From an uncultured Clostridia bacterium (GTDB taxonomy: Bacteria > Bacillota > Clostridia > Christensenellales > UBA1242): DNA of 64,000 bases. The notes beneath the pieces are model-generated. The model was not told the DNA's origin, made no database searches, and worked only from the letters and a program-made list of their open reading frames with translations. The stretch is taken from NCBI GenBank assembly GCA_944381155.1, contig CALWKA010000002.1:40939-104938 (forward strand), written 5' to 3'. Shown piece after piece: positions 58,459-60,018 of the stretch (the first letter of the stretch is position 1; each line of letters begins with the position of its first letter). A program made the position numbers and the translations under genes.

Positions 58459-59724
58459 CTATTGGTTGTCTGCCTGCAAGCCAAAGCTCATCTCATCCCC
58501 TTCTTCAAGTTCGGTAGGTAAAAGATATCCATTCCCATTAGATGTATACAATTCATATACATTAAGAATTGAATAATTAGATGATATAACGCACAAAAAA
58601 TCTCCAGTCGAACTATTAGCCACGCTTGTATCATCAACAACATTTGGCAAAGCGCCAAGATAAATATTTTTGCCACCATTGAATGTATTGCTCTCTATTC
58701 TCACTTCGCCCGTGATAGTTCCAATTGTTCCAGTTATATCTGTAGGTTTATCCGTATCTCCGAATCTAACTTTTATAGAAATCGGAACATTTCTGTGATT
58801 ACTAACAGTATTAAAATAGTTATTCATTATCAAAATATTATCGCAATTGGTAGAATGAAGATTAATATCTATCGTATATGCCATATTTCCTTGCTCACTT
58901 ACTGTTGTCCTACCATTAAATGTGCAAGTGTCAATCGTTAGATCGCTAACAGATGTTAGATACAAGCATTTAATTTCACCTGTGCCCACATCACCCGCAT
59001 TGAAAGTACAATTATTGAACATTAAACTTACATTTTTAGTGCTGGATACAGCAGTATTAAATGTGCACGAATCGAAAATATAAGTTTTCCCATCTTCAAA
59101 CATTGAATCAACATTTTGGTCAAAAGTTTGATCTCTTATCACTTCGTCTGTGCTCTTAATTATATAATATTTTGCATCGACAAATGATATATTGTAATTT
59201 TCCTTTGTGGCAGTTGCAGAAACTGTATAGCTATTCCCTGCCTCCTGACTGCCTACGCTAGGCAAATCTGCAATTGAAAATTCTGGATCAAATTCAGAAT
59301 CAAGGATATTATCCCCCGTTACAATAAATTCAGGCACCATTTGTGGTTCGTTTTCCACCTGATAAACATTTTTAATATAAATAATGACATCAATAGGATT
59401 GATATTCATCTCAACGGGTTCGTCTGAAACATAATCGGTATAGCCATCTGCTGAAATTTTGTAATATATCTTATAACTGCCCACTTCGCTAAAATTTAAT
59501 TGATCAGCAGACACAAAATCTTCTTTATCAAGCGAATAACTGACCGCGATATCATCCTTTCCCAAATAAGAAACTTCAAAGATATGACTAGCGCCGTCAT
59601 ATGTAAATTGCGTTGCCCCAATGCTAACATTCTCCGCTTCAAAAGTTTTTTCACCACAAGCAGATAGTATCACTCCAGCAAAGAGCAAGCACATTGCACA
59701 AATCGCTAGTTTTATTTTTTTCAT
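58459..59724 (-). CDS. Surface lipoprotein with Ig/MBG-like N-terminal repeats and a parallel beta-helix-like C-terminal region
   Basis: Lipobox LSAC. FTYDGASH / VGSYKIYY MBG-like motifs. Repeated CTFN units (DSCTFNTA, NNCTFNAG, DTCTFNGR). Confidence 0.55.
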   Translation of the reverse strand: MKKIKLAICAMCLLFAGVILSACGEKTFEAENVSIGATQFTYDGASHIFEVSYLGKDDIAVSYSLDKEDFVSADQLNFSEVGSYKIYYKISADGYTDYVSDEPVEMNINPIDVIIYIKNVYQVENEPQMVPEFIVTGDNILDSEFDPEFSIADLPSVGSQEAGNSYTVSATATKENYNISFVDAKYYIIKSTDEVIRDQTFDQNVDSMFEDGKTYIFDSCTFNTAVSSTKNVSLMFNNCTFNAGDVGTGEIKCLYLTSVSDLTIDTCTFNGRTTVSEQGNMAYTIDINLHSTNCDNILIMNNYFNTVSNHRNVPISIKVRFGDTDKPTDITGTIGTITGEVRIESNTFNGGKNIYLGALPNVVDDTSVANSSTGDFLCVISSNYSILNVYELYTSNGNGYLLPTELEEGDEMSFGLQADNQ

Positions 59725-59728
59725 ACAA

Positions 59729-59738
59729 CCCCCCCCCC
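59729..59738 (-). repeat. G10 homopolymer (C10 on the plus strand) in the ribosome-binding region of the lipoprotein gene
   Basis: Minus strand reads AAGGGGGGGGGGTTGTATG. This is the only long G/C homopolymer seen in the window. Confidence 0.9.
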
Positions 59739-60018
59739 TTAATTGATAAAAAATAAATAATACAACTATATTTTAGCAAATTAATCATTAAAAAACAATT
59801 ATTTTAAAAATAAACTCAAAATTAAACAAAAATTTTAAGTAAAAATTTATTTTATTTATATAATGCTCCCTATTTTACAAATTATTAATATAATATTTTC
59901 TATTAGAAAAAATTGATCAACAATCTATGTTTAATTTTAATAGAGTTAATTTTTTTAACCAAATTTAATTTGAATTGGCATAAATAAAATCTTAAAGCAT
60001 TTTGAATTTATTTGATAT

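Follow-up and report, generated by a model that had tools for sequence, protein, structure and literature searches.

A length-variable poly-G tract at the Shine-Dalgarno site of a surface-type lipoprotein gene from an uncultured Clostridia bacterium

Background

Does the length of a homopolymer that forms a ribosome-binding site influence the expression of the gene behind it? The question is raised by a 64,000-nucleotide (nt) stretch of DNA (contig CALWKA010000002.1 of assembly GCA_944381155.1, positions 40,939 to 104,938), referred to here as the window, which comes from an uncultured Clostridia bacterium and whose closest named genome is an uncultured Clostridia metagenome-assembled genome from the human gut. 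On its minus strand, ten consecutive G residues (G10; other tract lengths are written likewise) lie in front of a gene encoding a putative surface lipoprotein of 421 amino acids (aa). The original prediction, made from the letters of the window, had put this tract forward as a candidate phase-variation switch. We found the tract to vary in length among otherwise near-identical strains and, from duplex and folding models, we favour with moderate confidence a reading in which a Shine-Dalgarno sequence has been expanded by slippage and in which changes between G8 and G10 would tune initiation modestly, with no on/off effect.

Position and rarity of the poly-G tract

Read directly from the window, the minus strand around the tract is ATCAATTAAGGGGGGGGGGTTGTATGAAAAAAATAAAA, and the extended reading is ATCAATTAA-GGGGGGGGGG-TTGT-ATG-AAAAAAATAAAA. 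The G10 had been located at 59738-59729, directly upstream of the lipoprotein start, and taken as the ribosome-binding region of that gene; both statements stood on inspection, the initiation region being AAG10-TTGT-ATG and the encoded product carrying an L-S-A-C lipobox with Cys23. The ATG (59724-59722) begins the 421-aa open reading frame (ORF), and the TGTATGAAAAAAATAAAA context at the start region is conserved in the alignment across all alleles and the sister species described below. Coordinates of the features are given in Table 1.

The tract had also been described as the only long G/C homopolymer seen in the window, and the count agrees: in 64 kb of DNA at 33% GC, it is the sole G/C run of at least 6, all other runs of G or C being no longer than 5. 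Runs of at least 10 are expected about 0.002 times in 64 kb (order-0 and order-1 models, analytic) and one was observed, which confirms that the occurrence of the tract is far beyond chance. Runs of 6-9 number 0 in the window against about 2.4 expected (analytic), a strong under-representation which suggests that long G:C tracts may normally be purged. In 162 kb of fetched related loci, all G/C runs of at least 6 fall at this one site. As to mutability, G/C mononucleotide runs of about 7-8 or more are regarded as hypermutable, and both the G10 of the window and the G8-G9 of its close relatives have this length.

Tract length among related strains

Orthologous loci were retrieved by exact-protein look-ups (with the lipoprotein, members of its cluster and products of neighbouring genes), to which one genome scan was added. 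Every sequence used for comparison is a metagenome assembly, i.e. a consensus sequence, and the samples are human-gut metagenomes. The pattern scan of genome contigs returned one true orthologue (L011, from the sister species, with G7), while three others, L008-L010, matched by chance and are unrelated; a scan of metagenome contigs for the conserved start region gave no match.

Within the allele class of the window (type A), which has a single Shine-Dalgarno sequence and upstream 75 nt that are otherwise identical, the tract is polymorphic among six samples: G10 in the window, G8 in L001 (= L017, L032; sample SRR7457757), G8 then TGTATG, i.e. with one T fewer, in L012 (sample ERZ24773471), and G9 in L019, L026 and L027 (samples SRR27728197, ERZ24773272 and ERR4096316). 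The look-up with protein P0156 selects G9 by construction, so that the count of G9 is biased, yet these are still three independent samples. The window and the three G9 loci are free of substitutions over 2.1-2.5 kb, the tract being their sole difference; over 5.2 kb, L019 departs from the window by 2 substitutions, and the tract is again the only indel. The comparison of related strains that the original prediction had called for therefore reveals variable lengths, with G9 versus G10 as the sole indel between near-identical stretches. In the two type A strains that are more distant (24 substitutions per 2.5 kb), just 2-3 indels were counted in 6-7 kb, one of them being the tract.

Shorter tracts behave otherwise. 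Type B, the second class of alleles (93% protein identity), has an invariant G5 in 18 of 18 contigs. In the sister species (70% protein identity), all five contigs of the P0170 haplotype have G7, including the species-representative genome contig L011, and G6 accompanies P0171 (8 contigs) and P0004 (1 contig), two of these nine having a G-to-A change at the tract edge; G6 and G7 are here stable lineage markers that track the protein haplotype. The tract is stable at 5-7 G and, at 8 G or more, differs in nearly every sublineage. Slipped-strand mispairing is known to depend on repeat length, and this pattern fits such a dependence. We infer that slippage caused the length differences, and the strain comparison supports the view that the tract is hypermutable, probably a mutational hotspot.

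An error of sequencing or assembly at the homopolymer, the true tract having one fixed length, would be a different account of the same data. Homopolymers are error-prone, the comparison sequences are all metagenome assemblies and G10 occurs in the window alone. The lengths are nevertheless reproduced in independent samples and by different assemblers (G9 in 3 contigs, G7 in 5, G6 in 9 and G5 in 18), the sublineages with G8 and G8 minus T are distinguished by 24 substitutions over 2.5 kb as well, and G6 and G7 co-segregate with protein haplotypes; we consider such an artefact very improbable. The tract is in practice a site of disagreement between metagenome assemblies of one strain, which calls for caution in strain-level analyses.

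Placement of the tract in the 5′ untranslated region

Upstream of the tract, the block TTGTTT-17-TGcTAAAAT is kept in type A, in type B and in the sister species in an alignment where the surrounding intergenic DNA diverges. This block is probably an extended -10 promoter, an assignment made from conservation alone; a generic scan for consensus promoters did not list it, because its -35 element matches the consensus at just 3 of 6 positions. The tract begins about 31 nt downstream of the putative -10 element, at about +26 to +35 relative to the presumed transcription start near 59763, in a 5′ untranslated region (UTR) of about 39 nt. It would therefore lie in the 5′ UTR, outside the promoter spacer, and any effect on expression would consequently act on translation initiation. 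The original prediction had allowed that gain or loss of G might change promoter spacing; with a conserved putative -10 element 31 nt away from the tract, this part of it did not hold. A promoter-spacer mechanism was rejected on position, the repeat being neither between nor overlapping the -35 and -10 elements of the probable promoter.

The tract also disturbs gene calling. G9 opens an upstream frame to a TTG, from which gene callers give a 442-aa protein (P0156; L019 3358-4686, L026, L027). This TTG falls inside the putative -10 element (TTTGCTAAAAT), and the N-terminally extended protein was rejected as almost certainly a gene-caller artefact, i.e. a spurious product that appears at G9.

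Predicted effect of tract length on translation initiation

The tract is the Shine-Dalgarno base repeated and its 3′ boundary is constant at TTGT-ATG, so that the ancestral register should be available to every allele of at least G5. Among the alleles, the 3′ edge is always 3-4 nt from the ATG, the ancestral spacer being TTGT; extra G residues therefore lengthen the Shine-Dalgarno sequence upstream instead of displacing it from the start. They add upstream registers at 5-9 nt spacing and lengthen the possible duplex. The proposal that slippage would change the Shine-Dalgarno-to-start spacing is weakened by this geometry, in which the tract is itself the Shine-Dalgarno sequence with a fixed 3′ edge, and by folding calculations, in which no occlusion that depends on length appears for G4-G10.

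Shine-Dalgarno sequences of G4-G5 are ordinary in this genome: tracts of this size with 4-5 nt spacers are found at other genes of the window, with TTTAGGGGGAAATATG at ORF 62888..63379, and also ACAGGGGGAAAATATG. The former, on the minus strand (62888-63379, 163 aa), is a neighbouring surface-protein gene with a G5 Shine-Dalgarno sequence, and its product has a Bact_surface_Ig-like domain (E = 1.8e-8). A family-wide habit of poly-G tracts was rejected, as P0007, a relative from another organism, has a canonical AAGGAG-N6-ATG and both the window and the fetched loci are free of further G/C tracts.

Pairing with the anti-Shine-Dalgarno sequence is predicted to become steadily stronger as the tract grows, from -11.4 kcal/mol for G5 through -14.9 for G9-G10 to -16.5 for G11, after which it reaches a plateau. 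Over eight transcript boundaries, the cost of opening the initiation region stays at about 8-9 kcal/mol from G4 to G10, and increases at G11 or more only, for some boundaries. A first fold had hinted at AUG accessibility falling from G8 to G11; the more robust opening-energy calculation gave no trend for G4-G10, and a length-dependent structural switch was rejected. In a long tract, 5-6 nt separate the 5′ registers from an out-of-frame TTG (GG-TTG-TATG), which is 4 nt upstream of the ATG, and one may speculate that this TTG could then compete with the ATG.

The explanation that we favour starts from an ordinary G-rich ribosome-binding site, which would have been AAAGGGGG or GGGGGG, then 4 nt and the ATG (G5-G7). 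In the lineage of the window, slipped-strand mispairing would have lengthened the tract to 8-10 G, and at 8-10 units a G:C homopolymer would gain or lose units at high frequency, leaving near-clonal strains with different lengths. With one G.U wobble, the anti-Shine-Dalgarno CCUCC could be matched by any five of the G residues at the ancestral spacing, and changes between G8 and G10 would act modestly, a longer tract offering additional registers for pairing, a longer duplex and a slightly altered choice of spacings. The models contain no switch in the observed range, and a modest graded effect is therefore favoured, zero effect being still conceivable. A graded or small translational effect of tract length is thus what the models lead us to infer, and a hypermutable homopolymer embedded in a Shine-Dalgarno sequence would plausibly serve as a translational rheostat.

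Zero effect would be the outcome if the tract were a neutral by-product, a G-rich Shine-Dalgarno sequence having drifted beyond the slippage threshold with no meaningful consequence for expression and no selection for mutability. This accords with the models, which predict no length dependence in the observed range, with the stable and lineage-specific ancestral states (G5-G7), with the plain AAGGAG-N6-ATG of the relative in another organism and with the presence of a single such tract per 64 kb. Two observations speak the other way: the absence of runs of 6-9 against about 2.4 expected suggests that such runs are normally purged, and the tract persists at 8 G or more in three sublineages about 1% apart. 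We regard neutrality as somewhat unlikely, though deserving serious consideration.

Several points weigh against modest tuning by slippage. The anti-Shine-Dalgarno sequence was taken as canonical, the 3′ end of the organism's 16S ribosomal RNA lying outside the window, and RNA folding and duplex models are crude and unreliable for poly-G. The G10 state was seen in the window alone, three clonal samples having G9, and a one-G consensus error in one assembly could lie behind it. Finally, 6 of 6 type A samples keep at least 8 G across about 1% divergence; selection could be maintaining the long tract, which would favour a stronger role than modest tuning.

The lipoprotein and its predicted architecture

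The N-terminus, MKKIKLAICAMCLLFAGVILSAC then GEK, has a positively charged start, a hydrophobic core and the L-S-A-C lipobox, and an A-C-G consensus that includes the lipobox Cys is kept across 100 homologues. By the lipobox criterion, the product is assigned as a probable lipoprotein (a signal peptidase II substrate). Orthologue proteins are 99%, 93% and 70% identical, and the ratio of non-synonymous to synonymous substitution rates (dN/dS) between alleles is 0.14-0.26; the gene is therefore functional and under purifying selection.

Searches of Pfam and NCBIfam gave no significant family for the protein. In Pfam, MBG_2 (PF18676) was non-significant (E = 0.64, 11.1 bits versus a cut-off of 25). 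An exhaustive HMMER search nevertheless delineated a two-module protein: the part up to about residue 190 matches modules that stand at the N-terminus, or are repeated internally (up to 23 copies), in many lipoproteins and giant surface proteins, and residues about 190-415 match the C-termini of proteins of about 700 aa. The AlphaFold2 model, built with 100 homologues (predicted local distance difference test, pLDDT, 89), comprises the signal helix, a pair of Ig-like beta-sandwiches and a C-terminal domain rich in beta structure. For the N-terminal pair, the best Foldseek matches are weak (E about 5e-3, probability 0.96-1.0), namely domains of the Bacillus anthracis Sap S-layer protein, the SraP adhesin and Rib domains. 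Of the MBG/Ig-like repeats announced by the original prediction, the MBG part was lost with the Pfam result and the Ig-like part was recovered as the two predicted domains.

The C-terminal domain, modelled alone by AlphaFold2, reached a pLDDT of 94.5. Its Foldseek list consists mostly of right-handed beta-helix proteins (pectate lyases, phage tailspikes, PL6 lyases), none of them significant (best E = 0.065, template modelling scores of at most 0.37), and neither the whole model nor the C-terminal model had a Foldseek match at E <=0.001. A profile search of the PDB gave one weak irrelevant match. The homologue P0006 scores 25.1 bits on Pfam Beta_helix (PF13229), just below the cut-off of 25.9, the query itself being without a Pfam match. 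The CTFN-type repeats that had been noted are present, as five (C/N)(T/Y)FN repeats at residues 220, 239, 267, 302 and 346; the beta-helix deduced from them is weakly supported by these models. Ig-like repeats and a beta-solenoid-like domain on a lipid anchor would be a reasonable description of the product.

Allele classes and the case for a switch

Type B strains have an 18-nt tandem duplication of the whole Shine-Dalgarno and start unit (TTAAAGGGGGTTGTATGA / TTAGAGGGAGTTGTATGA; L002 2975-3020), also present in L003-L006, L013-L016, L018, L020 and L028-L031. It creates two in-frame ATGs 18 nt apart, with products of 427 or 421 aa, and the second Shine-Dalgarno sequence is interrupted (GGGAG). 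In some type B strains, IS3-type transposase genes (HTH_Tnp_1 + rve) lie directly downstream, replacing the HTH_3 gene (L004 1438-2537, L029 1433-1917).

The two allele classes differ mainly within an island (window 58459-60041, compared with L002 and L016), in which the lipoprotein gene differs by 5.8% and the upstream intergenic region by 21% with several indels; the flanks (YchF, BacA, HTH, OLE, the oapA-like ORF and a metallo-beta-lactamase-fold gene) differ by 0-1.5%. Between the classes, dS is 0.15 and dN/dS 0.24, and amino-acid changes cluster at residues 272-326, in the beta-solenoid-like domain; diversifying selection overall on the gene was rejected on this dN/dS. The island has the appearance of a surface-protein allele that is either old or imported.

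These features bear on the true phase-variation (contingency) switch of the original prediction, in which plus or minus one G would toggle expression between high and very low by a change in the geometry or the strength of the Shine-Dalgarno sequence. Initiation complexes might stall on a Shine-Dalgarno sequence that is too long, or long tracts might send ribosomes to the out-of-frame TTG, and the population would hedge its bets where antibodies, phages or the host exert pressure on a surface protein. A hypermutable tract that is polymorphic among near-clonal strains would suit such a switch, as would a surface-type lipoprotein with Ig-like and beta-solenoid-like domains, a gene and upstream region forming a divergence island with two allele classes, the retention of at least 8 G in every type A strain despite the expected mutational decay, and the 5′ registers of the long tract 5-6 nt from the out-of-frame TTG. 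Against it, the 4-nt ancestral spacing is preserved at every length, so that a functional Shine-Dalgarno register is always present; the predicted structure has no switch for G4-G10; three of the four clonal samples are G9, i.e. switching is too slow to randomise lengths; and there are no other G/C tracts, hence no 'phasome', in the 64-kb window or the 162 kb of related loci. We judge a switch of this kind quite unlikely.

The broader proposition, that the Shine-Dalgarno homopolymer is a heritable and reversible translational rheostat or switch for a surface lipoprotein, is advanced tentatively, and we rate it as unlikely. In it, tract length would set the anti-Shine-Dalgarno register, the duplex strength and possibly the choice between the ATG and the out-of-frame TTG; were it true, repeat-driven phase variation would act directly at ribosome docking. 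If length does tune expression, the tract would be a rare case of a hypermutable repeat that is also the ribosome-binding site, and would serve as a simple marker, readable from sequence, of how surface proteins vary in an uncultured lineage of gut Clostridia; if length has no effect, it would be an ordinary mutational hotspot.

Genomic context

The lipoprotein gene ends at a bidirectional terminator common to a convergent HTH_3 gene (Table 1). On its other side, a full-length OLE RNA (60042-60619, plus strand; Rfam RF01071, 346 bits, E = 5e-98) is divergent from it and is preceded by a good TTGACA-17-TAATAT promoter (60019-60047). The ORF directly after the OLE RNA (60634-61209, plus strand) encodes a 191-aa membrane protein that matches CNNM/DUF21 weakly and occupies the place where one would expect OapA, the OLE-associated protein, for which it is a candidate; NCBIfam has no model confirming OapA. 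In the sister species (L007 2275-2775, L022, L023, L036-L040), a GNAT acetyltransferase gene lies immediately upstream of the lipoprotein gene and divergent from it. Since the window has just intergenic DNA and the OLE RNA at this place, the upstream context is unconserved beyond about 200 nt.

Elsewhere in the window, at about 37040-37150 (plus strand), upstream of ORF 37266..38570, we observed the direct repeats ATATAGTTCGTTTTTCT (two to three copies) and AGTAGTCAATA (two copies), which may be operator or iteron-like sites. Two of the rare C5 runs of the window, at 37013 and 37180, fall in the same intergenic region.

Table 1. Features of the lipoprotein locus in the window
Feature	Coordinates	Strand	Basis
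G10 homopolymer, core of the expanded Shine-Dalgarno sequence; length polymorphic (G5-G10) among orthologous loci	59729..59738	-	direct reading
Translation initiation region AAG10-TTGT-ATG (Shine-Dalgarno, 4-nt spacer, start codon)	59722..59740	-	sequence
Putative sigma-A-type promoter: -35 TTGTTT (59798-59793), 17-nt spacer, extended -10 TGcTAAAAT (59778-59770)	59770..59798	-	conservation
Lipoprotein gene (421 aa)	58459..59724	-	ORF and translation
Predicted signal peptide with lipobox (residues 1-23, LSAC, Cys23)	59656..59724	-	sequence pattern
Two predicted tandem Ig-like beta-sandwich domains (residues ~28-190)	59155..59643	-	AlphaFold2, Foldseek
Predicted C-terminal beta-solenoid-like domain (residues ~195-415)	58480..59142	-	AlphaFold2 of the domain alone; (C/N)(T/Y)FN repeats
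Bidirectional intrinsic terminator, common to the convergent HTH_3 gene	58416..58451	.	terminator scan

Comparison with known systems

Phase variation in this bacterial group is known mainly from invertible promoters. The present locus is best placed among the intergenic repeat-mediated (contingency-type) loci already known, its peculiarity being that ribosome-docking site and repeat would be one. A full-text literature search of incomplete coverage, and thus weak evidence of absence, found no repeat coinciding with a Shine-Dalgarno sequence.

Promoter-spacer homopolymers, such as those of Neisseria opc and porA, Mycoplasma hyorhinis vlp and the poly-G of Treponema pallidum tpr, lie between or beside the -35 and -10 elements and act on transcription, slipped-strand mispairing altering expression and leaving the protein unchanged. 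Like them, the tract described here is a mononucleotide repeat upstream of a surface protein or lipoprotein gene; unlike them, it lies 31 nt downstream of the putative -10 element.

In Campylobacter jejuni NCTC11168, 29 loci have G/C runs of at least 7 (PMC4965091), and the likeness lies in a G/C homopolymer of at least 7, as a hypermutable repeat, at a surface-structure gene in a low-GC genome. The C. jejuni tracts are mostly intragenic, give on/off frameshifts and are many per genome, whereas we found a single non-coding tract in 64 kb.

The nearest documented parallels are the leader of Helicobacter pylori tlpB and espR of Mycobacterium tuberculosis; each is a 5′ UTR homopolymer that acts post-transcriptionally, and neither forms a Shine-Dalgarno sequence. 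The leader of H. pylori tlpB-hp0102 contains a G-repeat (6-16 G) whose length differs between strains and which mediates graded post-transcriptional control through the small RNA RepG (PMC8295292). Both cases involve a length-variable G homopolymer in the 5′ UTR of a gene whose function concerns the envelope or surface. The H. pylori repeat stands upstream of the ribosome-binding site and pairs with a C/U-rich small RNA; here it is the Shine-Dalgarno sequence itself, in a Firmicute, and is known from sequence alone. The precedent, in which RepG exerts graded repression or activation (PMC8295292), prompts one further explanation, namely that a trans-acting C/U-rich small RNA or an RNA-binding protein targets the repeat, whose length would set the sign and strength of control, as with RepG and tlpB. 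The tract likewise lies in an mRNA leader, but it coincides with the Shine-Dalgarno sequence and forms no separate upstream element, and Rfam finds in the window just the OLE RNA and two tRNAs, no dedicated partner search having been made; we hold this explanation to be the least probable of those considered, at the margin of what is credible.

Modest tuning of initiation, the reading that we prefer, can also be set beside M. tuberculosis espR, where a +1 G indel that often arises in a homopolymer of the 5′ UTR raises translational efficiency (PMC11898584). The two have in common a homopolymer variation in the 5′ UTR that leaves the coding frame untouched; they differ in that the tract of the window coincides with the ribosome-binding site and that our folding models predict no length-dependent refolding for G4-G10.

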